Source of the DNA: Alphaproteobacteria bacterium
Lineage (GTDB): Bacteria > Pseudomonadota > Alphaproteobacteria > Bin95
Assembly: GCA_963665325.3 (NCBI GenBank)
Contig: CAXXWS020000003.1
Location: 928,001 to 992,000 of the forward strand
Length of the DNA stretch: 64,000 nucleotides
Reading direction: 5' to 3'
Shown here: positions 3,786 to 23,912 of the stretch, one piece after another
Position numbering within the stretch: the stretch's first letter is position 1
Layout of the letters: each line of letters begins with the position of its first letter
Notes under the pieces: model-generated
Database searches by the model: none
What the model saw: the letters and a program-made list of their open reading frames with translations, nothing else
Told to the model about the DNA's origin: nothing
Program-made: the position numbers and the translations under genes

Positions 3786-4615
3786 CGCCGCGCCCTCCTC
3801 GGCTTGGCGGGTTCGCCCAGGGTCTCGATGAAGAGCTTCTCGTCGAGGACCTCGCGCTCCTTCTCGGCGGCGGCGGCGAGCAGGGCGTCGGCCATGACGG
3901 TGAGCGCCCGCGGGTTGCCGTCGGCATGGGCGACCAGGGTGTCCTTGAGGCCCGCGGTCATGAGGCCGGGATTGCCGGCCTGCTCGATCAGATGGTCGAG
4001 CAGGGCCGCGAGGTCGCCGGCCTCGGCCTTGGTCATGACCAGGCGCTGGCGGATGCGCGAGGCGATGGGCTGCAGATCGGGCTGGCGGAGCTTGTCGAGC
4101 AGGCGCGTGTCGCCGGCGAGGACGACCGAGAGGATGGCGCGCGAGTCGAAGTCGGTCGAAGCCAGCAGGCGGATCTCGGAGAACACCGAGGGCAGCAGCT
4201 CCTGGGCCTCGTCGACGAGCACGACGGGGCGCATGCGGGTATCGTCGACATGGGCGAGCCAGCGCTCGCGCAGGCTTTTGAAGCTGGCCCAGCGGTTGTT
4301 GTACATCAGGTCGACGCCGAACATCTCGCCGATCTCGCGGTAGAAGTCGGACAGCCGGGAGGAGGGATGGGTGATGGCGGCGATGCTGAGCCCCTCGCAG
4401 CGGCCGAGACGGTCGGCGAGCAGGCGCAACGCCACACTCTTTCCGGCGCCGGGCTCGCCGGCGATCAAGGCGAAGCCGCCCTGGCGCACCAGGTGGCGCT
4501 CGATCCTGAGGCAGAAGCTGTCGACGGCAGGCGTCGCCATGAGACTGTCGACCGGCAGGTCGGTGGCGAAGGGGTTCCACTTGAGCCCGTAGAAGGTGAG
4601 CAGTTCCCGGTTCAT
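3782..4615 (-). CDS. ExeA-family AAA+ ATPase (TnsC/MuB/IstB-like transposition helper)
   Basis: YGLKWNPF, Walker A GEPGAGKS, Walker B VLVDEAQ, VVLAG, GNPR. Confidence 0.85.
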   Translation of the reverse strand: MNRELLTFYGLKWNPFATDLPVDSLMATPAVDSFCLRIERHLVRQGGFALIAGEPGAGKSVALRLLADRLGRCEGLSIAAITHPSSRLSDFYREIGEMFGVDLMYNNRWASFKSLRERWLAHVDDTRMRPVVLVDEAQELLPSVFSEIRLLASTDFDSRAILSVVLAGDTRLLDKLRQPDLQPIASRIRQRLVMTKAEAGDLAALLDHLIEQAGNPGLMTAGLKDTLVAHADGNPRALTVMADALLAAAAEKEREVLDEKLFIETLGEPAKPRRARR

Positions 4616-6087: not shown

Positions 6088-6135
6088 TCCGGCATCCCCC
6101 TCGCTGCTTCGTGGAGGTGCCGATGATGCGGTGCC

Positions 6136-6750
6136 CTATCCGTGCATCATAGAAACGCTTTCTGCGGGCGAAGCCGGACCTGCGCCGAGCGCGCAAAAGC
6201 CGGTCCACGGCATCAGCCAGACCAGGCTCCGCAGCAGCCGCGAGCGGAAGCCACGGCCCCGCATGATGCGCAGCAGCCGGCGCAGCGGCGCCTCTTCGGG
6301 CGGCGCCGCCAGCTCGCCCCGTCTCGCCTGCCACTCCCGGGTCAGCGGGAAGGCTTCCAGCCACCAGCGCCGCCAGCGCTTCAGCGTCGAGGCCGGAACC
6401 CCGCACCGCCGCGCGATCGTCTGCAACCGCGCGCCGCCGGCCACAGCCAGCGCACTCACCACAAGGAACAGCGCCCCGACGTAAAAGCGCCTGCCGAAGA
6501 AACGCACCGACGGCGGCTTCACGCGGCGTCGGCACACCGAACAGCACAGGCTGAAGCGCCGAACGTCGTTCCGAAGATTCGCCGCCAGACCGTGCGGCTT
6601 GCGCGGGTAGCTCGCGCTGTGAAGCGCGCCGCCGCAGCGCGGGCAACCCGCCGCCCGGCACGCCTCCGCCTCGGCCGCGTCGACCTGCTTCAGAAAATCC
6701 CAAACCCGGGCGTTGGAGAGATTGGAGTGCCGGAACAGCTTGTGCGACAT
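6136..6750 (-). CDS. Transposon-associated Zn-ribbon/HTH protein (DUF6431-like)
   Basis: CPRCGG...CCSVCRRR and ASTLKRWRRWW; directly upstream of the transposase. Confidence 0.6.
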   Translation of the reverse strand: MSHKLFRHSNLSNARVWDFLKQVDAAEAEACRAAGCPRCGGALHSASYPRKPHGLAANLRNDVRRFSLCCSVCRRRVKPPSVRFFGRRFYVGALFLVVSALAVAGGARLQTIARRCGVPASTLKRWRRWWLEAFPLTREWQARRGELAAPPEEAPLRRLLRIMRGRGFRSRLLRSLVWLMPWTGFCALGAGPASPAESVSMMHG

Positions 6751-7258: not shown

Positions 7259-9352
7259 ATGCGCGGCATCGGCGGCAGCACGCTGCGGGGCGGCCAGACC
7301 GTCTTCCACGGCATCCGCATGTGGGGCCAGCTGTTCCAGGCCGCCCTGCTGTTCGCCGCCTTCATGACCGTCGCGGTGCCGGCCTGGAACCTCTGGCGCT
7401 CGACCTCAGGCGCGGAATGGTATGCCGCGGGCATGGTGACACTGGCCGAGACCAAGCTCGCGCTCGGCTACGAGCGGGACTCGGGCCAGGAAATCCGCTT
7501 TCCCGACGGCACCCGCCGGGTACTCGCCATCCGCGACATCGCCGTCTCGGTGCCGGCTCTCGAGGCGCGCGAGAAGCTCCTGGACGAACTACTGGCCAGC
7601 GCCTGGCTGGGCCTCAAGACGGGCGGCGGGCTGATCGCGGTCTTTCTCGTGGCGTTCTGGTACCGCGGCGCGCGGCTCGGGCGCCAGCGCCGCCTGCGGG
7701 GCGCCGAGCTGGTGAGCGCGGCCGAGCTGCGCCGCCGGGTGCGCCCGGCGCACCTGCGCCTGCTCGACCGCGCGCCCGGCTCAGGCAGCGTGCGGCCCTG
7801 GCGCATCGCCGGCATCCCGTATCCCGAGAGGACCGAGACCCAGCACACGATCGTCTCGGGCACCACCGGCTCGGGCAAGACGGTGCTGATCTCGGACCTG
7901 GTGGCCCAGATCCGCGCCCGCGGCGAGCGCTGCGTGATCTACGACAAGATGGGCTCCTACACCGCGGCCTTCTTCGATCCCGCCCGCGACGTGCTGATGA
8001 ACCCGCTCGATGCCCGGGCGCCCTGCTGGTCGCCCTTCCTCGAAGCCAGGAACCCCCGCGACTTCGACATGATGGCCGCCGCGCTGATCCCGCAGCAGAA
8101 GGACACCGTGGACCCCTTCTGGGTGACGGCGGCACGCCAGCTCTTCGCCAACGGCGCGGGCGTGCTGCGCGAGAAGGGCGTCACGCAGAACCGGGTGCTG
8201 GTCGACCACCTGCTGAAGACCGACCTCACCGCGCTCGCCCAGGCGATGGAGGGCACGGTCGCGCAGTCGATCGTCGATCCCGAGAACCCCAAGACCGCGC
8301 TCTCGGTGCGCGCCATGCTGACCGCCAATCTCGCCGCCTTCGAGTTCCTGCCCGACGAGGGCACGCCCTTCTCGATCCGGGAGTGGATCTCCCGGGAGCG
8401 GCAGGACGGATTCCTGTTCCTGACCTCGCGCGGCGACCAGCATGCCAGTCTCAGGGGGCTGATCTCGACCTGGCTGGAAATCGCGGTCAACGCCATGCTG
8501 TCGCTCGCCCAGGACGATGGCAGGCGCATCTGGGTGATCCTCGACGAGCTGCCGACCTTGCACCAGGTGCCCTCGCTCCAGCCCGGCCTCGCCGAGTCCC
8601 GCCAGTTCGGCGGCTGCTTCGTGCTCGGGGTCCAGGTCGCCTCGGCGCTGCGCGACCTCTACGGCAGGAACGGCGCGGAGACCATCTCGGGCTTGTGCGG
8701 CACGCGGGTGGTGCTGGCCGCCCCGGACCGGGATACCGCGCAGTGGTCCGCCGACAGCCTGGGCCGCAGCGAGGTCGAGGAGATCGCCGAGGGCTACTCC
8801 TACGGCGCCAACACCATCCGCGACGGCGTCTCGCTCACCCCGCGGCGCGAGCTGCGCGCGCTGGCCCTGCCGTCGGAGATCATGCGGCTTGAGAACCTGG
8901 AGGGCTATCTCAAGTTCCCCGGCCCCTTCCCGGTCGCCTCGATCCGGCTCCGGTATGTGAAACGCCCCGCCGCCGCCGAGCGCTTCGTGCCGCGCGAGGA
9001 GGGCGCGGAGCTGTCCGCACGGCCGGAAGACGCGGCCGCTGCCGGGGACGCGCCCGTCGAAGTGCTTGCGGAAGACGGGGAATCGGGGACTCCGGAGTCC
9101 GCGTTCCGGCGGGGCGAGCCGAACCTGCCGCCGCTTCCGGAAGAGACGGACATCGCACCGTCCCGCCGCAATGGCGTTGCGGATGCGGCTGCCGGCGACG
9201 GGACCGGCCCCGGCAAGGCCGGCAACCGGCCGGACGCGCCGGCGCCGGCGGCCGGGGCGCGAGGCGACGGGGAGCCCGATGCCGGCCCCGGACCGGCGGC
9301 GAAGCCCTCCGCCGGCACGGAGGAGCCCGCCGCGCGCCCCGACTGGGTCTGA
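7259..9352 (+). CDS. traD: Type IV coupling protein, TraD/TrwB family
   Basis: Two N-terminal TM segments, LRGAEL, Walker A GTTGSGKT, DPFWVTAAR, ILDELPTL, ESRQFGG; low-complexity tail. Confidence 0.92.
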   Translation: MRGIGGSTLRGGQTVFHGIRMWGQLFQAALLFAAFMTVAVPAWNLWRSTSGAEWYAAGMVTLAETKLALGYERDSGQEIRFPDGTRRVLAIRDIAVSVPALEAREKLLDELLASAWLGLKTGGGLIAVFLVAFWYRGARLGRQRRLRGAELVSAAELRRRVRPAHLRLLDRAPGSGSVRPWRIAGIPYPERTETQHTIVSGTTGSGKTVLISDLVAQIRARGERCVIYDKMGSYTAAFFDPARDVLMNPLDARAPCWSPFLEARNPRDFDMMAAALIPQQKDTVDPFWVTAARQLFANGAGVLREKGVTQNRVLVDHLLKTDLTALAQAMEGTVAQSIVDPENPKTALSVRAMLTANLAAFEFLPDEGTPFSIREWISRERQDGFLFLTSRGDQHASLRGLISTWLEIAVNAMLSLAQDDGRRIWVILDELPTLHQVPSLQPGLAESRQFGGCFVLGVQVASALRDLYGRNGAETISGLCGTRVVLAAPDRDTAQWSADSLGRSEVEEIAEGYSYGANTIRDGVSLTPRRELRALALPSEIMRLENLEGYLKFPGPFPVASIRLRYVKRPAAAERFVPREEGAELSARPEDAAAAGDAPVEVLAEDGESGTPESAFRRGEPNLPPLPEETDIAPSRRNGVADAAAGDGTGPGKAGNRPDAPAPAAGARGDGEPDAGPGPAAKPSAGTEEPAARPDWV

Positions 9353-9353
9353 C

Positions 9354-12344
9354 ATGCTGTCGATCGGCGCGCTCGCCTCGGCGTCGCAGGGCGCGTCCTA
9401 TTACGAACGCGACGGCTACTACTCGAAGGACGATCCGGAGCACCGCGCCGCCAGCGCCTGGGCGGGCAAGGGGGCCGAAGCGCTCGGCCTGAAGGGGCCG
9501 GTCGATCCCGACACCTTCCGCGCCGTGCTCGAGGGCCGGGTGCCCGACGGTTCCGGACGGCAGCTCGGCCGGCGCGGGAGGGACGGGGAGATCCTCCACC
9601 GTCCCGGCCGCGACCTGACCTTCAGCGCCCCCAAGTCCGTCTCCCTCGCGGCGCTGGCCGGCGGCGACGAACGCATCGTGGACGCGCATGACCGCGCCGT
9701 CGCGGCCACCCTCGCCTGGGTCGAGGGGAACGCCGCCGAGACCCGCATGAAGGATGCCGACACGGGCAAGATGGCGCGGGTCGGCAACCAGAAGATCGTC
9801 GCCGCCCGCTTCAGGCACGATACGTCCCGCAACCTCGATCCCCAGCTCCACACCCATGCCGTCCTCGCCAACATGGTGCAGGCGGAAGACGGCAAGTGGC
9901 GCAGCATGGCCAACGAGCGGCTCTACGGATCGAAGATGCTGCTCGGCGCGCTCTACCGCGGCGAGCTGGCCGCCTCGCTGGCGCGGCTCGGCTACGGGGT
10001 AGAGAAGACCCATGCCGACGGGCGCTTCGAGATCGCGGGCGTGCCGCGCGGGGTCGTCGAGGCCTTCTCGACGCGGCGCGCCGAGATCGAGGCGGCGATG
10101 AGCGAACGCGGGCTCGGCGGCTCCGCCGGCAATCCGCGCCTTGCCGAGCGTGCCGCGCTGATGACCCGGGCGGGCAAGCGCGACATCGACCGCGGGGAGC
10201 TGCGGGACGTGTGGGCGAAACAGGCCGCGGATCTCGGCTTCGACGCGCAGGCGCTGGTGGCCGGCGCCCTCGCCCGCTCCGCCTCGGCGCAGCGCGAGGC
10301 CCCGGAGGCGGGCAGGGAGCGGGACCCGGCGGGTCCGGCGCCGGGCGAGGCCCGCACGGCGCCGGCGGCAGACACAGCGCAGCGCGAGGCGGCGGCGCAA
10401 GGGCCGTGTGCGGCGTCGCGGGCCGTCGCCTGGGCGCTGGCGCATCTCTCGGAGCGCGAGGCGGTGTTCGCGCGCACCGACCTGCTCGCCGCCGCGCTCG
10501 CCCATGCGCCCGGCAAGTCGACGATCGGCGAGGTCGAGCGCGAGGTGGCCGCCCTGGAGAAGGCCGGCGCGCTGCACGCCGTCGACATCCCCGGCGCGGA
10601 GGAGTCGCTGGCGACCGCGAAGACCGTCGCCGAGGAGCGCGAGACGATCGCGTCGATGCGGGCGGGCGCGGGCCGGGGACAGGCCGCGATGCGGAGCTGG
10701 ATGGTCCAGGGGCACCTCAACAAGGGACCGCTCACGGCCGGCCAGAAGGAGGCCGTGAAGCTGATCCTGTCGGCGAAGGACCGCACGGTCGGCGTCCAGG
10801 GCTATGCCGGCACCGGCAAGACCACGATGCTGAACCGCGCGCGGGTGCTGGCGGCGAAGAAGGGATACCGCATGGCGGGCCTCGCGCCCTCGGCCTCGGC
10901 GGTGCGGACGCTCGCCGCGGAAGCCGGCATCGAGTCCGAGACCCTGCAGCGCTTCCTCGCCCGCAACGCGGGCGTCGCCGAGGGCCGTCTCACGAGGAAG
11001 GGCGCGAGGGAGATGCGCGCCGCGTTCGCGAAGACGATCCTGGTGGTCGACGAGGGCTCGCTTGCCTCCACCGTGCAGGCCCGCGACCTCTTGAGGATCG
11101 CCAACGCGCTGCGCATCCCCCGCGTGGTGCTGGTCGGCGACGCGAAGCAGCTCGACGCCGTCGATGCCGGCAAGCCCTTCGCCCAGCTCCAGGCCGCCGG
11201 TATGCGGACCGCGGTGATGGACGAGATCATGCGCCAGCGCGATCCCGACCTGAAGGAAGCCGTCGAGGCGAGCCTGAAAGGCGATGTCGAGAAGGCGTTC
11301 GAGAAGCTCGGAAGCAATGTCGCCGAGGTGAAGCCCGACAATATCGCGGGCGCGGTGGCCGCGCGGTGGCTCAGGCTCTCGCCGGAGCAACGCGAGAATA
11401 CCGGCGTCATGGCGCCGTCGCACGAGCTCAGGCAGGCGGTCAATGGGCATATCCGGGAGCGCCTCGCCCGCGAGGGGCGCATCCGCGGGCCCTCGATGCA
11501 GGGCGAACGCCTGGTGTCGAAGGGCTACACCGGTGCCGAGAAAGCGCTCGCGGACAATTACAGTCCCGGAGACATGGTCGCGTTCCACCGCCCCTACAGG
11601 CGGATCGGCGTCGAAAAGGGTGACGAGCGGCGCGTCGCGGGGGTCGACCGCAAGGCCCGCGCGGTGCTGCTCGACGACGGCAGGGGCGGGACGGCCGCCT
11701 GGAAACCCGGAGAGATCGGCGGGCGCCGGGGCGGCAGCGAGGTCTACCGCGTCGAGGAAATCGAGCTCCGGGCGGGCGACCGCATCCGCTGGACCCGCAA
11801 CGATGCCGGCCTCGGGCTGGTCAACAGCCGCACCGCCGAGGTGGTCGCGATGAAGGACGGCCGGGTGACCTTCCGCCTGGAGGACGGGAAGACGCTGGAA
11901 CTCGGGTCGAACGATCCGCAGCTGCGCCATCTCGACCATGCCTGGGCGTCGACCGTGCACGCCTTCCAGGGGCGCACGGTCGACAATGTCATCGCCGCCA
12001 TGGAGGCAAGGCACAAGCATCTGACGACGCAGAAGAGCTTCTATGTCGAGATATCCCGCGCCCGCGACCGGGCCGAGCTGGTCACCGACGACGCGGCCGA
12101 ACTCAGGGCGCAGCTCCAGGCGGTCACCGGCGAGCGCATCGCGGCGCTCGAAGGGATCGGCGAGGCGGCGCGCGAGGCGAAGGAAAGGGCCGCCGGGGCC
12201 GCGCCGGCGGGCCGGATGCAGCCGGATCGGGGAGCCGGACCGGATGCCGGGAAGACACCGGACGGGCCGGCCTCGCCCTCGAAGGAGAGGGAGACGCCCG
12301 CGCCGTCGCGCGGCCGGGGCGCCGAGAGGGACCTCGGACTGTAG
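9354..12344 (+). CDS. traI: MOBF relaxase-helicase (TrwC/TraI)
   Basis: ASYYERDGYY, DLTFSAPKSVS, HDTSRNLDPQLHTH, FSTRR, QGYAGTGKT, VVDEGS, HAFQG, YVEISRAR. Confidence 0.95.
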   Translation: MLSIGALASASQGASYYERDGYYSKDDPEHRAASAWAGKGAEALGLKGPVDPDTFRAVLEGRVPDGSGRQLGRRGRDGEILHRPGRDLTFSAPKSVSLAALAGGDERIVDAHDRAVAATLAWVEGNAAETRMKDADTGKMARVGNQKIVAARFRHDTSRNLDPQLHTHAVLANMVQAEDGKWRSMANERLYGSKMLLGALYRGELAASLARLGYGVEKTHADGRFEIAGVPRGVVEAFSTRRAEIEAAMSERGLGGSAGNPRLAERAALMTRAGKRDIDRGELRDVWAKQAADLGFDAQALVAGALARSASAQREAPEAGRERDPAGPAPGEARTAPAADTAQREAAAQGPCAASRAVAWALAHLSEREAVFARTDLLAAALAHAPGKSTIGEVEREVAALEKAGALHAVDIPGAEESLATAKTVAEERETIASMRAGAGRGQAAMRSWMVQGHLNKGPLTAGQKEAVKLILSAKDRTVGVQGYAGTGKTTMLNRARVLAAKKGYRMAGLAPSASAVRTLAAEAGIESETLQRFLARNAGVAEGRLTRKGAREMRAAFAKTILVVDEGSLASTVQARDLLRIANALRIPRVVLVGDAKQLDAVDAGKPFAQLQAAGMRTAVMDEIMRQRDPDLKEAVEASLKGDVEKAFEKLGSNVAEVKPDNIAGAVAARWLRLSPEQRENTGVMAPSHELRQAVNGHIRERLAREGRIRGPSMQGERLVSKGYTGAEKALADNYSPGDMVAFHRPYRRIGVEKGDERRVAGVDRKARAVLLDDGRGGTAAWKPGEIGGRRGGSEVYRVEEIELRAGDRIRWTRNDAGLGLVNSRTAEVVAMKDGRVTFRLEDGKTLELGSNDPQLRHLDHAWASTVHAFQGRTVDNVIAAMEARHKHLTTQKSFYVEISRARDRAELVTDDAAELRAQLQAVTGERIAALEGIGEAAREAKERAAGAAPAGRMQPDRGAGPDAGKTPDGPASPSKERETPAPSRGRGAERDLGL

Positions 12345-12425
12345 CGGTCCGGTGCGCAGGACTCGTGCGCGAGGGCAGGGAAGACGCCGCTCCCGGCCTG
12401 AAACCGCCCGTTCAGGAGGCATGGA

Positions 12426-12794
12426 ATGGACAGCAAGCGACCCGATACGGCGCCGGACGAGGCCGGCAGGACGGCGAAGCGCACGCCGCGCACGATCAGG
12501 TTCCTCGACCCCGAGTGGCGGCGCATCGAGGCCTTCGCGGACCGTCGCGGCCTGACCGGGCCCGAGTTCGTGCGTTTCGCCGCGCTCGCGGCGATGGAGG
12601 AGGCGCCTGCGGCGCCCGGTTCGTGCGACCGGCTGGCCCCGCTGATCGAGCGGACCTTCCGCTACGCCCATGTGCTCGCGAGCGCCATGCGCGGCAGGAT
12701 GCTCGACGGGGGCCGCGAGAAGGAGCTCGAAGAGCTGGTCGCCGCCGCCCGCGCGTTGCAGGATGAACTGCTGGGCGACGGCCAAGCCGAGTGA
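12426..12794 (+). CDS. Small RHH-like relaxosome accessory/DNA-binding protein
   Basis: RTIRFLDPEWRRIEAFADRRGLTGPEFVRFAAL resembles a ribbon-helix-helix; lies between traI and the candidate oriT. Confidence 0.6.
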   Translation: MDSKRPDTAPDEAGRTAKRTPRTIRFLDPEWRRIEAFADRRGLTGPEFVRFAALAAMEEAPAAPGSCDRLAPLIERTFRYAHVLASAMRGRMLDGGREKELEELVAAARALQDELLGDGQAE

Positions 12795-12915
12795 ACGCGG
12801 CCGCGGCGCAGCCCCAGGTGGACTTCTCCATCCGGATCGGGGGCTCTCCCGGGCACATCGACGGCCCTGGCGAGGGCGACGGAATCCCCCCGGGACCGCC
12901 GATGCCGCGAAGACA

Positions 12916-13195
12916 GGGGCGGTTCCCCGGAGAACCGCGGCCCTATGGAGGCGATGCTCTGGAGCATCGCGGGCCGAAATCGGCGATGCTCCAGAGCATC
13001 GGGGCCGGTTCTCCAGAGAATCGCGCCACACAAACCTCAATGATATCAGCGCCTTGTCCGCGCATCTCCAGAGCATCGACTCGGTCCAACATGCACAGGA
13101 CGCCGCCAGGCGGTGTTTGGCGGCAAATGGCGGGCTCCGGCGGGGCAGGTGCACACCTGGCACGACAGCATCGTCGATGCGTCGGGTGTGAGAAC
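12916..13195 (+). promoter_or_regulatory. Candidate oriT with palindromic CTCYRGAG repeats and F-like nic
   Basis: IR GCATCGTCGATGC (13168-13180) overlaps TGCGTCGGGTGT^G (13178-13190), 12/13 identical to F nic TGCGTGGGGTGT^G as recalled; several CTCCAGAG/CTCTGGAG-centred palindromes upstream. Confidence 0.6.
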
Positions 13196-14113
13196 CGAGC
13201 CGCCTCCGGCGTCGAAAGCAGCACCGACAGGCGGCATTCATGATGGGGGAATCGTCGCCGGGGAACCCGGCGGAGAGGAGCCGCCACGGCGATTTGAGTG
13301 GCGGGCGATGCGGCCGGAGCCGCGGGCAGTCGTGCGCAGCACGCTGCCGGAGGCGAAGCCGGTGCTGTCCGCACCGGTGCGGACAGTCGTGCACGGCGCA
13401 GTGCGGAGGCCGGTGTCCGGCGAAGCCGGCATCGGCGACGCACGGAGTGCTGCGGCGACGAGCACGGCGCGCAGCGCCGGCGCGAGGATGACGAGGCCAG
13501 AGTTCGGCATCGTGTCCGGGAGGAATGCACGGCGCGGCGGGCTCTTTGCCAAGCGGAGCGCGGAGTGAGCGCGAGCGAACGGAGGCGACAGGGATTGCAG
13601 TGGAAATCGCCCGCAGGGCGATTGGAGCGGAAAGCCCGGCCGCGAAGCGGGTCGCCCGGAATCATCGCAGGCTCGCGCGCATGGGTACTCCTGGCCAGCA
13701 GCATCGGCGCGAGCACCATCCGCAACATCTGGATCATCGTCGTGATCGTCACCCGCACCATGATGGTCGCCTTCATCGCCGCCGTCACCGTGCTGCGGCG
13801 AGCATCGCCGTCGGTCGCACCGACAGCACGAACAGGGATGCCGATATGGACGACGGCATCGTGACCGACGCTACCGGAACGTTGATGGGAGGGACAACAC
13901 TGCGCGTACCGGTGCTGATGAATGGAACGCTGCTGATGTTGGTGCCGACGACAAGCGGCGGAGCCGCCGCGGAGCGTGCCGCGCGCAGCGCGGCGCGCGA
14001 CGCGAAGGCGAGCGCCGGTGGCGGCGGCGGGGTCCGAGCAAAACGAGAGAGCCGCGCCGCCCGCCCCGGTTTGCGGTCCGGGGGAGCGGCGCGGCCCGTG
14101 TTGGCGTTGCACG

Positions 14114-15034
14114 TCAGCCGATGAGAACGGGAATGCCGAGCGCCTTCGCCTTGTCGACGAGGTTGGCCGTGATGCCGTTGCCCTCGAAGGCGATGAGGCC
14201 CTTGGGCATGAGGTTGAGCATTTCGTCGTTGCGCCGGAACGGGGCGGCGCGTCCGTGGCGTGTCCAGTTGGGCTTGCACACGACCTGGTCGACGCCGTTG
14301 CTCTCGGCCCACCGGGCGGCGAGCCGGTCGGTGCCGGGGCCGCCGCCGTGGACGATGACGAGGTCGTCGTACTTGGCGCGGGTCTGGTCGAGGCGTCGGG
14401 CGATGGCGTCCGGGTCGCGCACGTCCTTGCCGCCGGCGATGGCGACCAGTGTGCCGCTCGGCAGGTGCGCCTTCGTCTCGCGGTCCTTCCGTGCGCGGAT
14501 GAAGTCGCGCGCATCGATGGCGGCGGAGGTCAGCGCGCCGGTCTGCGAGACGTGGCTGCCGCGCCTCGGACGCCAGACGTCTCCGGTCGCGGCGCGGTAC
14601 TGGTCGGCCGCCGCATCGCGCATCTGCTCGAAGGCGTCGCGGCGGTCGCCGAGGTTCTGCGCCCGCTCGGTCGTCAGCTCGAGCTCGCGGGCCTTGACCT
14701 CGGTGCCGTCCTGGGCGGCTTGCAGGTCGCGCAGCTCGGGGGTGAGCCGGTCGACGGAGCGGTCGAGGCGGCGGACCTGTGCGTCGAAGGCGTTGACGAT
14801 GCCCCACAGCAGGTGCTCTCGCTCGTCGGCGAGCTGGAAGCCGTCGGGTGCGACGCTCTCGGCGAGGATGCGGAACGCTTCGCCCACCGCGCCGACGGCC
14901 TCGTCTCGGTCCCAGATGTCGCGGGGGTCGAACTCGCCGCGCTCTGGGGTTGCGCCGTAGAGCTGCGCGTTCTCGCAGACTGTCGCGGTCATGGACTGGT
15001 CTTGGCTCTCGAAGGTGTCGATATCGAAGGTCAT
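14114..15034 (-). CDS. DUF2493/YspA-like SLOG-domain protein
   Basis: N-terminal coiled coil, then LVAIAGGKD...VIVHGGGPGTDRLAARWA...HGRAAPFRRNDEML...ANLVDKAKALGIPV. Confidence 0.8.
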   Translation of the reverse strand: MTFDIDTFESQDQSMTATVCENAQLYGATPERGEFDPRDIWDRDEAVGAVGEAFRILAESVAPDGFQLADEREHLLWGIVNAFDAQVRRLDRSVDRLTPELRDLQAAQDGTEVKARELELTTERAQNLGDRRDAFEQMRDAAADQYRAATGDVWRPRRGSHVSQTGALTSAAIDARDFIRARKDRETKAHLPSGTLVAIAGGKDVRDPDAIARRLDQTRAKYDDLVIVHGGGPGTDRLAARWAESNGVDQVVCKPNWTRHGRAAPFRRNDEMLNLMPKGLIAFEGNGITANLVDKAKALGIPVLIG

Positions 15035-15075
15035 GATGGATGCTCCCTTGAGCTTGCGGTTGATGCCTGCGAGGC

Positions 15076-15350
15076 GGGGGTGCCTTGCTGTGCCTGATTG
15101 TTGGGACACGCGCGCGCAGGGGAGCCACCGGGACCGGAATGAATGGCCCGATGTGGTGCGCGAGTGGTGCGGGCGCAGGGAGCGAAGCGACTGAGCCACG
15201 GTCGCGCGCCGCATCGGGACTAGGCGCGCAGCGCCGTTTCATTCCGAGTCCCGGCCGCAACGGAGCGAAGCGGAGTGGAGGACCCGCTTTAGCGGGTTGG
15301 CGCACTGAGCACGTGTGGCACGATAATCAGGCACAGCGAGGAACCACCCT
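15076..15350 (+). promoter_or_regulatory. Long imperfect hairpin, Frpo/ssi-like ssDNA promoter candidate
   Basis: GCTGTGCCTGATT (about 15088-15100) pairs with AATCAGGCACAGC (15325-15337) within a roughly 40-bp imperfect stem; distal arm carries TTGGCG...GATAAT. Confidence 0.55.
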
Positions 15351-15470
15351 TTCCCCTGGCACGGTCCCCTTGGGCGGAACGGTCAGGCACGGTGTCCGGG
15401 ATTGACGCGCGGACCTGGCGGCGGCGATTCCGACCTTCGCGGTGGCGACGGACTCCAAGTCGACAGCACG

Positions 15471-15501
15471 AAAAAGGGGCCGGCACCGAAGTACCGACCC
15501 C
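15471..15501 (-). terminator. Rho-independent terminator after ssb
   Basis: Minus strand GGGGTCGGTAC-TTCG-GTGCCGGCCCC-TTTTT. Confidence 0.8.
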
Positions 15502-15528
15502 AGTGGGAGATGGGAGACGATGAGCCGC

Positions 15529-15999
15529 CTAGAACGGAATCAAATCGTCGGATTCCTGGGCGGTGCCGTTCGCACTCGACGCGGCGGCCTCGGCCGGCAC
15601 GGACTCCGCGCCCGCCGCCTGCGCCGCGGGCTTCGCGCCGTTGCCGTTGGGCTTGTCCAAGAACTGGAGCCGGTGGCCCGGCACGACCAGAATCTCGGTC
15701 GAGAAGCGGTCGGAGTCCTCGCCGTCCTTCGTCCAGCGACGCGTCTGGAGTTTGCCCTCGGCGTGGACCAGGCGGCCCTTCTTCGCGTGCTTCTCCAGCA
15801 TCGAGATGAGCCCGTCCTGGAAGGTCACCACGCGGTGCCATTCCACCCGGTCCACCTTTTCGCCGGTCTGCCGGCTGAGGAAGCTCTCGTCGGTCGCGAT
15901 GCTCAAGTTCGCCACGCGCCCCCCGCTCGCGAGATGGTTGACGACGACGTCGGCGCCGAGGCGCCCGATGAGCTCGACCCTGTTGATTCCGAATGCCAT
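15529..15999 (-). CDS. ssb: Single-stranded DNA-binding protein
   Basis: INRVELIGRLGAD, VEWHRVV, EGKLQTRRW, acidic tail DDLIPF. Confidence 0.95.
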   Translation of the reverse strand: MAFGINRVELIGRLGADVVVNHLASGGRVANLSIATDESFLSRQTGEKVDRVEWHRVVTFQDGLISMLEKHAKKGRLVHAEGKLQTRRWTKDGEDSDRFSTEILVVPGHRLQFLDKPNGNGAKPAAQAAGAESVPAEAAASSANGTAQESDDLIPF

Positions 16000-16100
16000 T
16001 GCGGTTCTCCTCACGTGTTCGATATTGACGATGGTCGAGCGGGCGGGACCGGGAACCTCTCGCTCCCCATCCCTTCCGCTCATTCTTCTCCCGCTTCCCT

Positions 16101-16256
16101 CTACCTCGCGTCCGCCGGAACCTCGCGGTCGGGACAGCGACGGGCGAGGTCGTCGGCGAGCGCGTCCCGCACCGCGCCGACATCGAGCCCGAGCTCGGCC
16201 AGCAGCTCGTTGCCGCCCGCGGCGATGGGGTCGTAGTCCGAGTACGTGTCGAACAT
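16101..16256 (-). CDS. Small acidic hypothetical protein (51 aa)
   Basis: MFDTYSDYDPIAAGG... preceded by a GGAGG RBS; co-oriented with ssb. Confidence 0.5.
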   Translation of the reverse strand: MFDTYSDYDPIAAGGNELLAELGLDVGAVRDALADDLARRCPDREVPADAR

Positions 16257-16374
16257 GGCAGGTCCTCCCGGATGCCGCGCCCGGCGGCGGGGAAGCCCAC
16301 CTTCCTCCATCCCGCCGGGCGCTTGCCCGGCACGCGCTTCCCTCTTCCTCCCGACCGCCCTCGCGGGACGCGGG

Positions 16375-17523
16375 TCACGCCCAGGCGGCCCAGCGCATGA
16401 CCGGGTTGAAGTCCGAGACGACCTCGACCTGGTCGAAGCCGAGCTTGGCGAAGACCAGCGCCGCGGCCGCCTCGGCCTCGCTGTCGAAGGTGCCGAGCGT
16501 CTCGCCCGAGGCGAGCTCGATGACGGTGAAGCTCGGGTCCCAGGCCGGCATGCCCCGGAAGTAGCTGGAGCCGTGGTAGGACTTCTCGGCGCACGGGGCG
16601 CATTGCGCGGCTCCCTGCGAGGGCGCTCCGCAGCTCGTGCATTCGGAGCGGGCGCGCCTCTGCCAATAGAGCTCCCGGCTGCGGGCATTGCGGCGCTCCC
16701 GGTCCCGGCGCTCGCTCTCGAGCACGGCGCAGGGCGCGCACCGCGAGCCGCCGTCGTTCACCGCACCCGCGCACCTGACGCACACCCCGGCGGCGCGCCT
16801 GGCGGCGTAGGCCTGTCGCTCCGACCCGCGCCGCGCAATCCGGCACGGCTCGCACGTCGAGCCCCCCTCGATGGCGGGACGCGTGCCGCATGACGTGCAC
16901 AGGCCGGCGGTGCGCCGGGCCTCGTCGCGCCTGCGGCTGCGCTCGCGGCCGATGCGTCGGCGGGTCTCCACCGGGCGCCCACCATAGAGCTTGCCCTGCG
17001 ACATTGCCTTGGCGTAGCGCGCCCGCTCGCGGGCCCGGCGCTTCTCGTTGCATTGCTCGCACAGGGTGAGTCCCTCCGCGGCCGGGGCCTTCCCGCAGTG
17101 CAAACACAACCCGGCTTCGCGGCGCGCCTCGGCCTGCCGGCGGGAGCGCTCGCGTTCATAGGCGCGGGCGTGCTTGGCGTCGCGCCGGGGCAGGCCGGCG
17201 GCACGGAGCCGCGCGTCCCGTGCCCGGCTCGCCCGGTTCGTCTTCTCGGCGCAGGACTCGCAGATGGACCGCTCGGGCGCGGGCGGACGCTTGCCGCACT
17301 TCGGGCACATCCCGGCCGCGACCCGGGCGGCGGCCCGGCGATGATGCCGTGCCCGGTCGGCGGGCCGCTTCTTCGCCGCGCACGGCTCGCACTGGCTGCG
17401 ATGGGGCGCCGGCGGGCGCTTGCCGCATTTCAGGCAAAGGCCAGCAGCGCGGCGTTCAGCGGTCCGCTTGTGATAGCGCTCCAGGTCCCGCGAGCGCCTG
17501 GCCTCGATGTCGAGTTCGCACAT
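16375..17523 (-). CDS. Protein with six tandem C4 zinc-finger repeats and an AP2-like C-terminus
   Basis: Six CxxC-x9-11-CxxC units joined by Arg-rich helices; C-terminal LGTFDSEAEAAAA; AAGGAG RBS. Confidence 0.75.
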   Translation of the reverse strand: MCELDIEARRSRDLERYHKRTAERRAAGLCLKCGKRPPAPHRSQCEPCAAKKRPADRARHHRRAAARVAAGMCPKCGKRPPAPERSICESCAEKTNRASRARDARLRAAGLPRRDAKHARAYERERSRRQAEARREAGLCLHCGKAPAAEGLTLCEQCNEKRRARERARYAKAMSQGKLYGGRPVETRRRIGRERSRRRDEARRTAGLCTSCGTRPAIEGGSTCEPCRIARRGSERQAYAARRAAGVCVRCAGAVNDGGSRCAPCAVLESERRDRERRNARSRELYWQRRARSECTSCGAPSQGAAQCAPCAEKSYHGSSYFRGMPAWDPSFTVIELASGETLGTFDSEAEAAAALVFAKLGFDQVEVVSDFNPVMRWAAWA

Positions 17524-17608
17524 GGGTCGTTCTCCTTGCCGGGGTTGGGAACCAGACGAAGGACGCCCGACCGGCGCGGGCCGGCCGGACGTCCCCGGAG
17601 AGCGCCGC

Positions 17609-17941
17609 TCAGCCGCGCTGCTTGCGGTCGCACAGGATGCCCGCGGCGTGAGACCCCCAGAGCTGCTGGCCGCCGCGGGTGGTGAGCCCGGTGCAGATGA
17701 TGATCTCGGTGCGGGCGGGGCGCATTTCCTTGACCGCCTTCAGCGTGGCGGTGACGCGCTTCGCCCCGCGGCCGCCCTTCTTCGCGGTCGCCGCCCTCTC
17801 GCGGGGCCAGGGGCGGATGTCGCCATCGGCGTACGCCTTGAACCGCTCGACCGCGTATCGCTGGTCGACAAGGCCGCCGCCGAAGAAATGGACCAGGAAC
17901 GTGTCCGCCGTGTTGCCGGGAATCGCCATTGCCGTCGTCAT
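17609..17941 (-). CDS. Hypothetical protein (110 aa)
   Basis: ATG with GGAG RBS, co-oriented upstream of the zinc-finger gene; no family recognised. Confidence 0.5.
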   Translation of the reverse strand: MTTAMAIPGNTADTFLVHFFGGGLVDQRYAVERFKAYADGDIRPWPRERAATAKKGGRGAKRVTATLKAVKEMRPARTEIIICTGLTTRGGQQLWGSHAAGILCDRKQRG

Positions 17942-18241
17942 GGTGCCGTCTCCATTTGCCGCTGATGGGAAACGGCGGAGACGCCTCCCTCCGGGACGTC
18001 GTCCGCCGCCCCGCTTCCGGCCAAACTCTCCTCTCGCCGGTGCGAACCCGCATGGCGGCGACCGTGCGCTGATGGGGTATCGCGGCAAGGCGGAGAACGA
18101 CGGGTGCGAAGATTCCCGGTCCGCTGACGGCCCCATGTTCGAGTGGGGCACCGCGGAAAGGACCGCTGCGCATACCGGCGCACGGTCGATGCCTCTGCCC
18201 AGGCGGTTGCGCGCAAAATTGTTCGCGTCTATCGTCGGGCG

Positions 18242-18454
18242 ATGACCGGACGGCAGTTCATCGCGCGGGTCCGCCGGTGGGCGAGGGTCCGGGGCGTGGA
18301 GGTGCGCTTCGTCGCATCCGAGGGATCCGGCTCGCACGGGACGCTCCATGCGGGCGGGCGAAAGACCACCGTCAAGGACCGCAGGAAGGAGATCGGCCGG
18401 GGGCTGCTCGGCAAGATGCTGGCCGACCTCGGAATCGACCCGAACGACCTGTAG
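18242..18454 (+). CDS. hicA: HicA-family toxin
   Basis: GSGSHGTL...TTVKDRRKEIGRGLLGKMLADLGI. Confidence 0.8.
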   Translation: MTGRQFIARVRRWARVRGVEVRFVASEGSGSHGTLHAGGRKTTVKDRRKEIGRGLLGKMLADLGIDPNDL

Positions 18455-18462
18455 GAGGACCG

Positions 18463-18900
18463 ATGCCCGACAGCTACGACTATCCCGCCACCATCGAATG
18501 CGACGAGGACGGGCGCCACGTCGTCTCGTTCCCCGACTTCGGCTGGGGCGCGACCGACGGTGCGACCCGCGACGAGGCGCTGGCCGAGGCGCGGGACCTG
18601 CTGCGCGAGCTCATCGCGGCGACGATGCGCGAGGGCGGCGCGCTGCCCAAGCCCTCGCCCGCCGGCAGGCGTCGGCCCCTGGTGGTTCCGCCGGTGCAGA
18701 CCGCGCTCAAGGCGGCACTCTACGAGGCGTGGCGCGAGGCCGGGATATCGCAGCGCCGGTTCGCCCGCGACCTCGATGTCGCGGAGAGCGAGGTCCGGCG
18801 CATGCTGAACCCCGATCACGCCACCAAGGCGGCGACCATCGACCGGGCGTTGCGCCGGCTGGGCAAGCGGCTCACCGTGACCGTCGGCGAGGCGGCCTGA
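18463..18900 (+). CDS. hicB: HicB-family antitoxin with HTH
   Basis: YPATIECDEDGRHVVSFPDF...TDGATRDEALAEARD...LPKPS plus C-terminal HTH. Confidence 0.85.
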   Translation: MPDSYDYPATIECDEDGRHVVSFPDFGWGATDGATRDEALAEARDLLRELIAATMREGGALPKPSPAGRRRPLVVPPVQTALKAALYEAWREAGISQRRFARDLDVAESEVRRMLNPDHATKAATIDRALRRLGKRLTVTVGEAA

Positions 18901-19005
18901 GCGGACAGTCCGGCCCACCGGCTCCGCCGTCGGCGGGACGGCGGTACGTACCCCGGCCGGGCCGGCGATGGCGATGGACGAGCCCGCGACTCCATCGCGA
19001 CGAGG

Positions 19006-19266
19006 TTGCGCGCCCGGCTGGTGCGGCTGCTGGAGACGGTGGAGAGCGTCGGTCTCGATGCGCTTCGCGCGCCACATGTCCGACATCTTGACGGCAAGCT
19101 CTGGGAGCTGCGGGTCAGGGCCGAGGGAGGGATCGCCAGGGGGATCTACATGACGGCGGCCGGATGGCGGGTGGTGGTGCTGCACGTCTTCGCGAAGAAC
19201 TCGCGCAAGACGCCACGCCGGACGCTCGCGACCGCCCGGGAACGGATGAGGCAGGTGACGCCATGA
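19006..19266 (+). CDS. RelE/HigB (Gp49-like) toxin, probably N-terminally truncated
   Basis: PHVRHLDGKLWELRV...RVVVLHVFAKNSRKTP; the usual N-terminal roughly 20 aa are absent. Confidence 0.7.
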   Translation: MRARLVRLLETVESVGLDALRAPHVRHLDGKLWELRVRAEGGIARGIYMTAAGWRVVVLHVFAKNSRKTPRRTLATARERMRQVTP

Positions 19267-19548
19267 CGAAGCTGAAGGAACTGAAAGCGCGCTTCATGGA
19301 GGACCCGGAGTTCCAGGAGGAATATGCGCGCATCGACGGGGGGGTATGCGTTGATCGAGGCGCTGGTGCGTGCCCGCAGGGCGGCGAAGCTGACGCAGGC
19401 GGAGCTTGCAAGCCGGCTCGGCACGACGCAGTCGGCCGTTGCGCGGCTGGAGGGCGGGCGGGTGTCGCCGTCCTTCGCCACGCTGCGCCGCTACGCCGAA
19501 GCGACCGGCACGCGGCTGACCGTGGATCTGGTGCCGGCCGGTGGCTGA
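19263..19548 (+). pseudogene. HigA-like Xre-HTH antitoxin with +1 frameshift in a G7 run
   Basis: MTKLKELKARFMEDPEFQEEYARID, then G7 (19338-19344), continuing in another frame as YALIEALVRARRAAKLTQAELASRLGTTQSAVARLE. Confidence 0.8.
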
Positions 19549-19589
19549 GCGCCCGGGATGTCGGCTGGCCGGCGTTGCGGGTTCCCGGG

Positions 19590-19720
19590 GGCAGCTCCGG
19601 CCCCACCGAAGTGGAAATCGTCGATCACCACCGATGGGAGGCGCGTCATGCGCGAGCCCGCCCATTCCGGCGAGACGCTGCGCGACGACCTCGACGCGCT
19701 CGCCATGAGCCCGGCTGCCG
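19590..19720 (+). pseudogene. Relic of a proteic-killer HigB C-terminus and HigA N-terminus
   Basis: GPTEVEIVDHH (compare ...VEIVDYH*) followed by MREPAHSGETLRDDLDALAMS (compare HPGExL). Confidence 0.55.
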
Positions 19721-19846
19721 ACGCTCGACGCCGGCACGGGACTGCCTGCGGCGGGCTGAGGGAGCCGCGCCCGCAGGCCGGCCATACGTATGGCGGACAG
19801 CGGCGCGGCGGCCCCGTCCCCGGAGGCCGCACGCGAACCGGGGCGC

Positions 19847-20098
19847 TCAGTCCCCGGCCTCGAACAGCCGGCGGTAGGCCGCCTCGGCGCGGACGAGACC
19901 GGTGTCGGTCAGGTTCACCGATCTGGCCTTGCCGACCGGATCGGAGATCAGGTCCTTGTCGTGAAGCCGGTCCATCGCCGACCAGTCGAACGACTTCCAG
20001 GTCCGGGCGCCGCCCGTCGGGTAGCGCTCGACGATGCCGAGCCAGAGCAGCGCCAGCACGGCCTCGTCGATCCTGTCCTTCACCCGCTCGTCGCTCAT
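19847..20098 (-). CDS. DUF6429-like wHTH protein
   Basis: IDEAVLALLWL...RTWKSFDWSAMDRLHDKDLISDPVGKARSVNLTDTG. Confidence 0.7.
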   Translation of the reverse strand: MSDERVKDRIDEAVLALLWLGIVERYPTGGARTWKSFDWSAMDRLHDKDLISDPVGKARSVNLTDTGLVRAEAAYRRLFEAGD

Positions 20099-20538
20099 CG
20101 CGCCCGCCCGTCCGGCTCTCCGTCGAGGTTGCTGTCGTCGCCGTCGGACCCCATGACACGCTCCACCAGGTGATCGGTGACGTCCACGAAATAGCTCTCC
20201 AGCTCGGACTGGAGCCGGCTGTACTCCGGCCATACCGCGCGGTCGAAGAACCGTTCCCGCGCCCGCACCATCACCGTCGTGCGCCGCTGGCGCGCGTAAC
20301 GGAAGGTACGCACGCCGTGCTTGCGACAGACCGCCACGAACAGCCGGACCGACCACGTATCGGGGAGCGAGAACTGGAGCTCGACTTCCGGCTCGGGCCG
20401 CTTGCCCGAACCGCCGAGGCGGCCGTGCAGCCGGCCCATCGCGGCCTCCGCGGCGGTGCGCTCCCCCGGACTGCCGGCGTGGCGGAACAGCGCTTCCACC
20501 TTGGCAAGCTTCGCCCTCAGTGCGTCGTCGTCGATCAT
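20095..20538 (-). CDS. Conserved-looking hypothetical protein (DUF2786-like N-terminus)
   Basis: KLAKVEALF...SPGERTAAEAA; ATGA overlap with the downstream gene. Confidence 0.6.
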   Translation of the reverse strand: MIDDDALRAKLAKVEALFRHAGSPGERTAAEAAMGRLHGRLGGSGKRPEPEVELQFSLPDTWSVRLFVAVCRKHGVRTFRYARQRRTTVMVRARERFFDRAVWPEYSRLQSELESYFVDVTDHLVERVMGSDGDDSNLDGEPDGRAR

Positions 20539-20805
20539 CGCGCGCCGTCCGGCTGGATCGGAATAACGACAGCATGATCGAACCCCCGCCGCGCTGTCCA
20601 TGCCGGGCAATACCGCATGGCCCGACGGACGGCGATACGCATACCGCAGGCTGGCGCGGCGCCTGACGGATCGAGCGGGCTCGGCCTCGCGTGGCCGGGG
20701 CCGGGGCCGGGGCCGGTCGAGGATACCGGCGGCGCGGGACGCACCGTCTCGACATAGCCGTGGTCCGACCGGGCGGAGCCCGCTATGATATGACCAGTTT
20801 CATGA

Positions 20806-22340: not shown

Positions 22341-22475
22341 GTCGGCACCTGTCGGGACCTGTCCTGTCAGGATTGTGTTTCAATCCGGTGACTATTTGTT
22401 GACGGGCTTAGAATGAAGAAGAAAAACATCAATAATAACGGTGGTTTAGTGGAAATAGATGCACAAGTATGGCGC
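22341..22475. other. Putative att end of the conjugative element (arm-type repeats, AT-rich spacer, core)
   Basis: GTCGGCACCT/GTCGGGACCT tandem at 22341-22360, AT-rich 22381-22460, core GCAC-N6-GGCGC at 22461-22475 where integrase homology breaks. Confidence 0.55.
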
Positions 22476-23431
22476 AGGTCGTGAAGATGCACATCCTCCA
22501 GGTCGGCCTCGGATCGGACCCTGATCCAGAACCGGTCCAACCAATTGTCGCTCATGGGCCGGTCGCTCCGAAATGCGGGGAACACCCAGCGGCCTTTCCG
22601 TTCAAGGCCGTCGAGAACAGCACGGGCCGGCTCCGAGAGCCACACGGTTCGGGGGCCCGTCTTGCTGTCGCGGAGGAACAGATGGCCCTCGCGGTAATCC
22701 GGCCATTGCAGAGTGAGAATTTCGCTCTTGCGGCAGCCGGTCAGGAGAAGCAGCCGGATGGCGGCGACCTGCTGCGGTTGTTCCACTTCATGCGCCTTGA
22801 GCCTTGCGGACAGGCGGCGGATTTCCTCGTCGGAGAGGAACCGCTCGCGGCCCTTGCGGCGGTATCGCCGGATGCCCCGGCAGGGGTTGGAACCCTCCGG
22901 GCGCAGGCCCATGGTCTCCGCTTCCTTCATGATGACGGACAGCACCGGCATGGACCGGTCCGCCGCCACTGGCGTCGCGCGCAGACGGGCGAACCAGTGC
23001 CGCACCTCCTGCCGGTCGATGTCGGCAATCGGCCGCCCGGCGAAATGCGGCAGAAGCTGATTGCGGAGATAGTACCGGTTCACTTTGAGCGTCCTGGCCT
23101 TCCAAAGCCGCGCATGGCGCTCGAACACGGTCTCGGCGACGGCTTCGAAGACGGTCACTTCGGGACGGTGCGGCGCTTCCTTGCCCCGCCGGATGGCGGC
23201 AAGCATTTCGGTCGCCGAAGCCCGCGCCTCGACGATGCTCATGTCTTCGGCATTGCCGACGATCTTCCAGACCCGCTCGCCGCGATGCTGGCACTGGATG
23301 AAGAACCGCTTCCTGCCGGTGGGCATCACCCGGACGCCGAAGCCCTTGAGTCTGGCGTCCCGGATGTCGAAGGGTGACTTGCGAGGCTTGAGGGCCTCAA
23401 TGCGGGCTGCGGTAAGGGTAACACTGGGCAT
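22367..23431 (-). pseudogene. Tyrosine integrase with Arm-DNA-binding domain, interrupted just after HDLRHT
   Basis: GFGVRV...RFF arm domain; LLLLTGCRKSE, SKTG, HDLRHT, then unrelated residues. No LLGH box or catalytic Tyr. Confidence 0.85.
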
Positions 23432-23540
23432 GTAGCTCTCCCGGTTCCGGTTGCAGCCGGGGAACAAGCAATGGCAGATTACTTCCCCGGCCGCAGTTTT
23501 TCGGGAGAAACAACAACGCAATATCAGATAGTTAGCACCG

Positions 23541-23912
23541 CTAAGGTGCGTTGTCGGTGTAGTCCTCTCCGGTCCCGAAAACGGTCGTGGGATCGGAGGC
23601 TTCCTGGCCGAAATAGGAAAGATCGATCCGCCAACGGTTCGGCAATTGCGTCCCGGCGGTGACCTGGAAGTTCGCGATATAGCCTGTATCGGTGTTGTCG
23701 TTGCCTTCCGCATCGACGGTCCATCGCCCATCCACCAGACCGGTGAGCACGAAGGTCACGTCGCCGATTTCGACCGCGATCGGCTCCTCCATGGACGACA
23801 GGCTCTCATAGTTCAGGGGGACGGTCTGCGCCCCGGCAAGGCCGCCCGCGGCCACGCCGGCGGCGGCAATTGCAGCGGGAAGCAAGGCCCGCAGAACCCG
23901 GTGTGCGGCCAT
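23541..23912 (-). pseudogene. Secreted porin-like protein, 3'-truncated
   Basis: Signal peptide followed by alternating beta-strand segments; ends abruptly at a GCACC-GCTAA-GGTGC palindrome (23535-23549). Confidence 0.5.

Follow-up and report, generated by a model that had tools for sequence, protein, structure and literature searches.

A conserved, uncharacterised array of six predicted Cys4 zinc ribbons encoded beside ssb in the putative leading region of an ICE family

The leading region of a conjugative element is now regarded as a reservoir for functions in establishment and anti-defence, but most genes of such regions are unnamed. In Agrobacterium, VirE2 is a large nucleic-acid-binding protein of the DNA transferred by the T4SS, and VirE1 is a small acidic chaperone of roughly 50–60 amino acids. 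As described in passages of PMC11541004, genes for SSB, toxin–antitoxin and anti-defence proteins in plasmid leading regions are arranged such that the transferred strand (T-strand) serves as their template. The oriT substrate of R1/F is given in passages of PMC5422253 as an inverted repeat, GTGGGGTGT, the nick and GGTGC, with 27 nt 5' and 22 nt 3' of nic, and passages of PMC3074121 contain the same core, with TraI linked to the 5' phosphate. The locus compared here with these systems lies in a window of 64,000 nucleotides, the whole stretch of DNA that was analysed, from an alphaproteobacterial genome of 5 contigs and 5.58 Mb. The gene of interest (ZnF; Table 1) starts with ATG, preceded 6 nt upstream by AAGGAGAA as the ribosome-binding site, and its GC3 is 0.91 in a window with a GC content of 69%.

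Table 1. Positions, strands and descriptions of the features discussed (window coordinates; residues refer to the ZnF protein)
Feature	Position	Strand	Description
TrwB/TraD-type coupling protein	7259..9352	+	Gene call
TrwC-type (MOBF) relaxase-helicase	9066..12344	+	ORF overlaps trwB
Non-coding block	13158..13408	.	Conserved between ICE copies; contains the oriT core
Predicted oriT core	13168..13190	+	Hairpin GCATC-GTC-GATGC (5-bp, 13168-13180), then GTCGGGTGT, predicted nick, G
YAcAr/SLOG-domain gene	14114..15214	-	Between oriT and ssb
Terminator-like hairpin	15476..15501	-	11 pairs then TTTTT, just 3' of ssb
ssb	15529..16083	-	Pfam SSB, E 4.8e-22; tail ...DDLIPF; last gene of the operon
orf51	16101..16256	-	Encodes a small acidic protein (pI 4.05); flanked by ZnF and ssb; in 11/23 loci
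ZnF gene	16375..17523	-	382 aa: six predicted Cys4 zinc-ribbon + basic-helix modules, acidic C-terminal domain
Acidic C-terminal domain	16378..16548	-	Residues 326-382; predicted beta-beta-alpha-beta; contains LGTFDSEAEAAAA motif; not supported as AP2
Zinc ribbon 6	16591..16641	-	Residues 295-311, CTSC...CAPC
Zinc ribbon 5	16729..16782	-	Residues 248-265, CVRC...CAPC
Zinc ribbon 4	16843..16899	-	Residues 209-227, CTSC...CEPC
Zinc ribbon 3	17050..17106	-	Residues 140-158, CLHC...CEQC
Zinc ribbon 2	17251..17307	-	Residues 73-91, CPKC...CESC
Zinc ribbon 1	17380..17436	-	Residues 30-48, CLKC...CEPC
orf110	17609..17941	-	Conserved basic 110-aa protein, directly upstream of ZnF in 17/23 related loci

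By analogy with the R1/F oriT, the nick is predicted to lie between positions 13189 and 13190. The motif recurs in the copies of the element as a hairpin followed by GT[C/G][C/G]GGTGT, the predicted nick and G, with a hairpin-to-nick spacing of 9 nt as in R1/F; the 9-mer of the window matches that of R1/F at 8/9 positions, and the 9-mers of four other copies are identical to the R1/F sequence GTGGGGTGT. Across seven distinct copies the hairpin is paired in 35/35 cells and contains one covarying pair (UA in four, GC in two and CG in one), and its score was reached in 6 of 500 shuffles. The motif occurs six times genome-wide, against about 1.9 occurrences expected from composition, and in all six cases it is preceded by the hairpin and located between trwC/orf122 and the YAcAr gene; the 1.3-kb gap from orf122 to YAcAr is without coding signal and contains the conserved non-coding block. 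In 9/9 instances, counting the related loci and the genome, the motif strand is complementary to the coding strand of the operon; the two are plus and minus, respectively, in the window, and the mirror arrangement is seen in L001, L005, L013 and L016. The transferred strand is therefore predicted to be the operon template. The order of the genes is likewise the same in 9/9 instances. In the window ZnF is located 3.2–4.3 kb to the 3' side of the predicted nick, and the genes would enter the recipient in the order YAcAr, ssb, orf51, ZnF and orf110. The first-pass annotation had placed the gene in a conjugative leading region, and this placement held, with an F/R1-like oriT 3.2 kb away and the genes in the correct orientation; the position 3' of the predicted nic and the template strand make ZnF a well-supported leading-region gene.

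On the minus strand the order of transcription is orf110, ZnF, orf51, ssb, the strong terminator-like hairpin and the YAcAr/SLOG gene, and synteny was assessed in 23 related ZnF loci from other genomes. Wherever orf110 lies directly upstream of ZnF in these loci it is on the same strand; among the six loci without it, L002, L006 and L023 lack the upstream flank and L004, L019 and L022 have the flank with no match. An ssb is found downstream of ZnF in 15/23 loci, and five of the remainder end within approximately 1.3 kb; YAcAr is present in 11/23, and TrwC falls inside the 10-kb flank in 2/23. The divergent ZnF paralogs of the genome itself (L032) still flank an orf110 and still precede an ssb, orf110 having been co-duplicated with ZnF. 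Judged by this gene order, orf110–ZnF–orf51–ssb is a conserved operon of F-type/TrwC ICEs. The orf110 family comprises 540 unnamed homologs, with no lead from Pfam, NCBIfam, the PDB or the Atlas and no match in PLSDB plasmids, and a complex prediction for ZnF with orf110 scored 0.15 against a mark of 0.32, a value that speaks neither for nor against a complex. The ZnF operon showed no sigma-70-like promoter. The DNA fold upstream of orf110 gave a z of −2.17 and the ssb–YAcAr spacer a z of −0.65, no convincing ssDNA-promoter hairpin was seen upstream of the operon, and an Rfam scan returned only sub-threshold chance matches.

The genome contains eight YAcAr–ssb modules, six of them with a ZnF gene; two modules lack it, and ZnF is therefore accessory to the module. 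The statistics do not differ within two pairs of these modules, which may represent repeats or duplicates at contig ends. An entire sister copy of the element lies on the same contig (C4, at roughly 37–80 kb) and comprises two tyrosine integrases, a Gp49/HTH pair, an adhesin and an F-type T4SS (TraE, K, V, C, U, N, H and G), followed by TrwB, TrwC, orf122, the minus-strand module and then housekeeping genes. In the copy in the window an IS21 and one or more adhesin genes replace the T4SS at its expected place, so that it may have lost the ability to transfer on its own; its first trwC start codon is probably placed too far upstream, because the ORF overlaps trwB. From these gene complements, ZnF belongs to an ICE family that combines an F-type T4SS with a coupling protein of the TrwB type and a relaxase of the TrwC type. 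Homologs unconnected with mobile elements had been named as a finding that would speak against the first-pass annotation; what was found instead is a gene situated in ICEs, patchy and multicopy in its distribution.

The six paired-cysteine units read from the sequence at first pass are all present exactly as listed. They follow the pattern CxxC-x(9–11)-CxxC, and none of the 24 finger cysteines varies across the 95 rows of an alignment of six-finger homologs, so the six-unit pattern is not due to chance. An AlphaFold2 model from the same alignment has a mean pLDDT of 88.4 and a pTM of 0.45, the latter being as would be expected for an extended multi-module chain. In the model, a helix follows each finger unit, as had been claimed, and the six short cysteine knuckles join Arg-rich helices of about 20–24 residues (6–27, 46–69, 89–109, 116–137, 156–175, 185–206, 225–244 and 263–291); two conserved linkers, GLPRRD and GKLYGG, interrupt the array. 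Residues 1–312 contain 66 Arg and carry a net charge of +44, which together with the invariant cysteines supports the proposal of a modular, very basic zinc-finger array that plausibly binds nucleic acid. The last 60 residues have a pI of 4.05 and a net charge of −6, with GETLGTFDSEAEAAAA at residues 340–355. Conservation is fairly even across the array and highest in ribbons 1, 2 and 6 and in the linkers, the profile along the array contains no hypervariable 'recognition' positions, and orthologous fingers are more conserved than paralogous fingers. Comparison with the genome's sister copy points to purifying selection on the gene, with a dN/dS of 0.29 and, in the tail, a dN of 0 without any amino-acid change.

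A profile built from 36 single finger units gave weak matches to generic Cys4 zinc ribbons, all below curated cut-offs, the best being to eL37 and PHF5A at a non-significant E of 0.024. DZR_2 matched 10/36 units weakly, the DksA/TraR C4 zinc finger (PF01258) matched 6/36 with a best E of 0.003 and no significant match to the whole ZnF protein, and zf_C2H2_13 matched 1/36 at an E of 0.13, with no other family of C2H2 type in the 25 Pfam families listed. Because all six units are of the form CxxC...CxxC and the unit profile matches only generic Cys4 ribbons, the fingers are taken to be Cys4 zinc ribbons, not C2H2 fingers, and the 'eukaryote-like' design first attributed to them is an analogy at most. 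The protein scored 19.9 bits against the double zinc ribbon Pfam model, whose cut-off is 27, and 3/150 divergent relatives exceed the cut-off of DZR or DZR_2.

Searches with the whole protein returned nothing above cut-offs in Pfam, NCBIfam and PDB sequences and no match in PHROGs or PADLOC; the full model gave nothing significant against the PDB in Foldseek (best E 0.56) or VIA-align (best Z 3.9), and the ESM Atlas yielded only hypothetical or viral double-zinc-ribbon clusters. The BFVD contains seven matches at E<=1e-3 (best 3.6e-5, 22–36% identity), all of them predicted phage proteins from metagenomic viruses with tandem zinc ribbons and either no name or a machine-given one. No description of the family was found in the literature covered, which included PMC11541004 and PMC5512222. 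The nearest item in that literature is a 'Cysteine-rich VLP' family. The initial statement that no characterised family could be recognised was borne out: ZnF is a real, conserved and uncharacterised family, without a Pfam, NCBIfam, PHROG or PADLOC model or a solved relative.

Scoring of 8000 candidates gave 990 ZnF homologs (90%-identity clusters) at E<=1e-3, and at 50% identity there are 2287 representatives at E<=1e-3 and 84 at 1e-30; the only source name seen for these homologs is 'hypothetical protein'. A survey of finger number, as proposed at first pass, revealed that the count varies: in the best 120 matches it is six in 103, five in 10, eight in 5, four in 1 and three in 1. In complete genomes, forms of about 343 aa with five units begin at query residue ~52 and forms of 289–298 aa with four units at query residue ~106, so that the N-terminal fingers have been lost and the C-terminal fingers and tail kept; the eight-finger forms have an internal two-unit insertion. 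A Pfam scan of 150 divergent representatives found sporadic, unrelated extra domains in six (DruA + DDE, integrase pieces in two, REase-ARP, LolA-like and GT2), which we read as chimeric gene calls, uninformative as fusions, and a search for longer fused forms (670–2000 aa) returned none at E<=1e-10, a result of little weight. In the class survey, which scored four candidates per genome, 8/401 genomes (6/307 genera) had one to six matches each. Going by their record titles, the related loci are mostly on alphaproteobacterial MAG chromosomes, with others in Gammaproteobacteria, a Bryobacterales, a Gemmatimonadetes and an unclassified bacterium, and tblastn found no match in 72,556 PLSDB plasmids or in phage genomes. 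Tandem paralogs occur in L001 (three), L004 (two) and L006 (two).

The C-terminal tail had been likened to the AP2/ERF domain. AP2 is a three-stranded sheet followed by one helix (beta-beta-beta-alpha), and the sheet surface that contacts DNA is basic and aromatic. A model of the last 70 residues, made with 25 sequences from the window and related loci (mean pLDDT 77.5, ~90 in the core), has the order strand 20–24, strand 30–34, helix 37–47 and strand 54–58, and the acidity of the tail is the opposite of a basic surface. Pfam AP2 (PF00847) matched 0/25 tails even at E<=10, a six-frame AP2 search of the genome itself, which holds at least six tail copies, gave 0 matches at E<=1e-3, and the tail profile had no match in PDB sequences. 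Aligned by hhalign with four sub-threshold bacterial AP2 segments, the only ones found in 301 genomes, the tails gave a probability of 0.4% over 12 columns (LGTFDSEAEAAA versus LGNFKTINEAAA). With the tail model, Foldseek against the PDB (best E 0.42) and VIA (best Z 3.8 in a wide search and 3.7 in a second look) had no AP2 or integrase arm domain among the rows listed, though a family missing from such rows is not thereby excluded. The AP2 reading of the tail fails on the profile searches, the hhalign probability, the strand order and the acidity; what the tail shares with AP2/ERF is a 12-residue junction motif, LGTF-D/T-x-E-E-A-A, and in the profile and model comparisons the echo appears to be confined to a strand–helix junction within an acidic domain that is not of the AP2 DNA-binding type.

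Taking the architecture and the position together, we infer that ZnF binds zinc and nucleic acid, is made early and acts with SSB on the incoming strand as an establishment factor, a reading that we favour tentatively and rate as somewhat short of an even chance. The six Cys4 knuckles would serve as rigid joints between about ten Arg-rich helices, forming an extended modular binding surface, and the acidic beta-beta-alpha-beta tail may be a module for partner binding (docking) or self-masking and not a reader of DNA. Lying 3.2–4.3 kb 3' of the predicted nick with the T-strand as its template would position the gene for early production in the recipient, where ZnF, made from the leading region, may join the SSB of the element on the incoming single strand in coating, in protection or in aiding conversion to double-stranded DNA.

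A possible but unlikely alternative is that ZnF, alone or with orf110, neutralises a restriction, CRISPR, SOS/RecA or abortive system of the recipient; the tail, being acidic, would then serve as an inhibitor head or decoy that the basic array tethers to the incoming DNA. A leading region with ssb and toxin–antitoxin genes resembles the anti-defence islands described in passages of PMC11541004, and the tandem paralogs, the range of four to eight fingers and the co-duplication of orf110 would suit an anti-defence effector. However, PADLOC and PHROG returned nothing for ZnF, no defence target can be named, and the even conservation along the array and the purifying rather than diversifying selection speak against such a role. 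The tail did match two small acidic DNA-mimic inhibitors, p56 (Z 2.6–2.9) and AcrIIC5 (Z 2.8), but these values are far below the noise level of the tool.

Binding to iterated sites of the element, as a regulator, a relaxosome accessory protein or a partition-like protein, is a distinctly unlikely reading. Iterated sites would suit a multi-module DNA binder, and three to four copies of a 19-nt palindrome do lie at 12951–13080, 100–240 bp 5' of the predicted nick; the better conservation of orthologous than of paralogous fingers is also consistent with site recognition. Yet the palindromes are not conserved between ICE copies, although the fingers are, and the array lacks the variable positions at which recognition might be expected to reside. 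Known relaxosome accessory proteins and ICE regulators are, moreover, small RHH or HTH proteins, and the sharing of an operon with ssb points to single-stranded DNA.

That ZnF is instead an RNA-binding or ribosome-associated factor, raising the translation or stability of early ICE transcripts, we regard as highly improbable: Arg-rich helices with Cys4 ribbons resemble ribosomal proteins, and eL37 heads the weak finger-unit matches, but E-values of this kind are not significant and the context (ssb, oriT and relaxase) is one of DNA processing. An AP2/ERF-type sequence-specific tail added to a eukaryote-like finger array, for which the local motif TLGTFDSEAEAAAA against bacterial AP2 LGNFKTINEAAA would speak, is scarcely credible in view of the failed profile searches, the different strand order, the acidic tail and the Cys4 type of the fingers.

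The reading of ZnF as an establishment factor acting with SSB can be set against the known systems. Pfam DZR (PF12773), DZR_2 (PF18912) and the phage zinc-ribbon proteins of the BFVD share with it the tandem paired CxxC knuckles; the phage proteins are shorter (93–287 aa), an acidic tail or an ICE context is not known in them, and none has a known function. The likeness to VirE2/VirE1 is by analogy only, in that a nucleic-acid binder is likewise encoded beside a small acidic protein, here orf51; no homology was detected, and translocation and chaperoning in the ICE are speculation. Extending this analogy, orf110, ZnF and orf51 might together make up an establishment system of F-type/TrwC ICEs with three parts that has not been recognised before. 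The array would wrap the T-strand as VirE2 does, orf51 would keep ZnF soluble and off the DNA in the donor in the manner of VirE1, and the acidic tail would dock to SSB, to the relaxase or to the coupling protein, by which ZnF itself might be able to pass through the T4SS; this is improbable, and we offer it as a long shot.

In conclusion, this analysis defines an F-like predicted oriT for a poorly studied ICE family and, beside it, a large protein family with members in several phyla and tight linkage both to an ssb of plasmid type and to orf110. Compared with the TraI-type oriT of R1/F, the predicted site shares the order of inverted repeat, 9-nt GT(G/C)GGGTGT and nick; the R1/F hairpin is 8 bp, whereas that of the ICE is 5 bp with a 3-nt loop, the relaxase of the ICE is annotated as TrwC-type, and its nick is a predicted one. 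The plasmid leading-region proteins SSB, PsiB and ArdA/ArdC have no sequence or fold similarity to ZnF, and in contrast to plasmid establishment proteins ZnF occurs in chromosomal ICEs, is absent from the PLSDB searches and has a role that is proposed here from sequence and context. It nevertheless shares with them the position just 3' of nic, here a predicted one, the T-strand template and neighbours of the ssb and toxin–antitoxin kind. We therefore rate ZnF as belonging with the leading-region accessory proteins, here built from zinc ribbons, and as a concrete candidate for the handling of incoming ssDNA by the ICEs of environmental Alphaproteobacteria.

The two copies of the ICE on the contig that bears the window, the window's own copy and a complete sister copy, are mosaic in their identity to each other. 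Across trwB, trwC, orf122 (the gene that follows trwC) and the oriT gap they are 100% identical, whereas the proteins encoded by YAcAr, ssb, orf51, the six-zinc-ribbon protein gene ZnF and orf110 share only 88–96% identity (window 12000–14120 versus 14120–20744, set against C4:71391–79610 of the window's own genome). This change in identity along the aligned sequences suggests a breakpoint of recombination or gene conversion between the copies near the 3' end of YAcAr. Compared with the sister copy, the window's copy has the HicA/HicB pair as an insertion, and this stretch shows 89% identity to part of contig C2.

Features of the window discussed in the text
Feature	Position	Strand	Remarks
IS21 (transposase and IstB) and Calx-beta adhesin genes	3782–6750 and 50–2587		Immediately 5' of trwB in the window's ICE copy
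trwB	7259–9352		Longest-ORF call
trwC	9066–12344		Longest-ORF call
19-nt palindrome, GCGATGCTCYRGAGCATCGC-like	12951–13080		3–4 copies, between orf122 and the oriT core
F/R1-like oriT core	13168–13190	+	5-bp hairpin, 9 nt GTCGGGTGT, then predicted nick
YAcAr/SLOG gene	14114–15214	-	366 aa; YAcAr/SLOG domain only at residues 257–320
HicA/HicB pair	18143–18900
Repeat of ~1.1 kb	22467–23563

The N-terminal 250 residues of the YAcAr/SLOG protein gave no family match. The calls for trwB and trwC share 287 nt, and since the TrwC Pfam domain begins at residue 106 of its call, the real start of trwC is probably near 9350.

Each of the genome's copies of this ICE family has the F/R1-like oriT core, as do four related loci. 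A regulator or a relaxosome accessory protein may bind the adjoining palindromes, whose sequence is not kept in other copies of the ICE.

At locus L032 (C3:467000–472100 of the same genome), two divergent ZnF paralogs (~30% identity) lie on either side of an orf110 homolog and are followed by an ssb; the trio is kept even in this distant version of the module. Mirror-image copies of one ICE module with identical match statistics stand at the starts of contigs C3 (297–6840) and C5 (2678–9221), and this module is probably a repeat at which the assembly broke. The ~1.1-kb repeat, for which the genome holds at least a dozen sites with 70–83% identity, lies close to what is probably the element's right end.

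Immediately to the left of the window, an adhesin ORF of 5538 codons was observed (locus L026). The sister copy carries an F-type T4SS at the site where the window's ICE copy has the IS21 and Calx-beta adhesin genes, and the latter copy is probably unable to transfer on its own.
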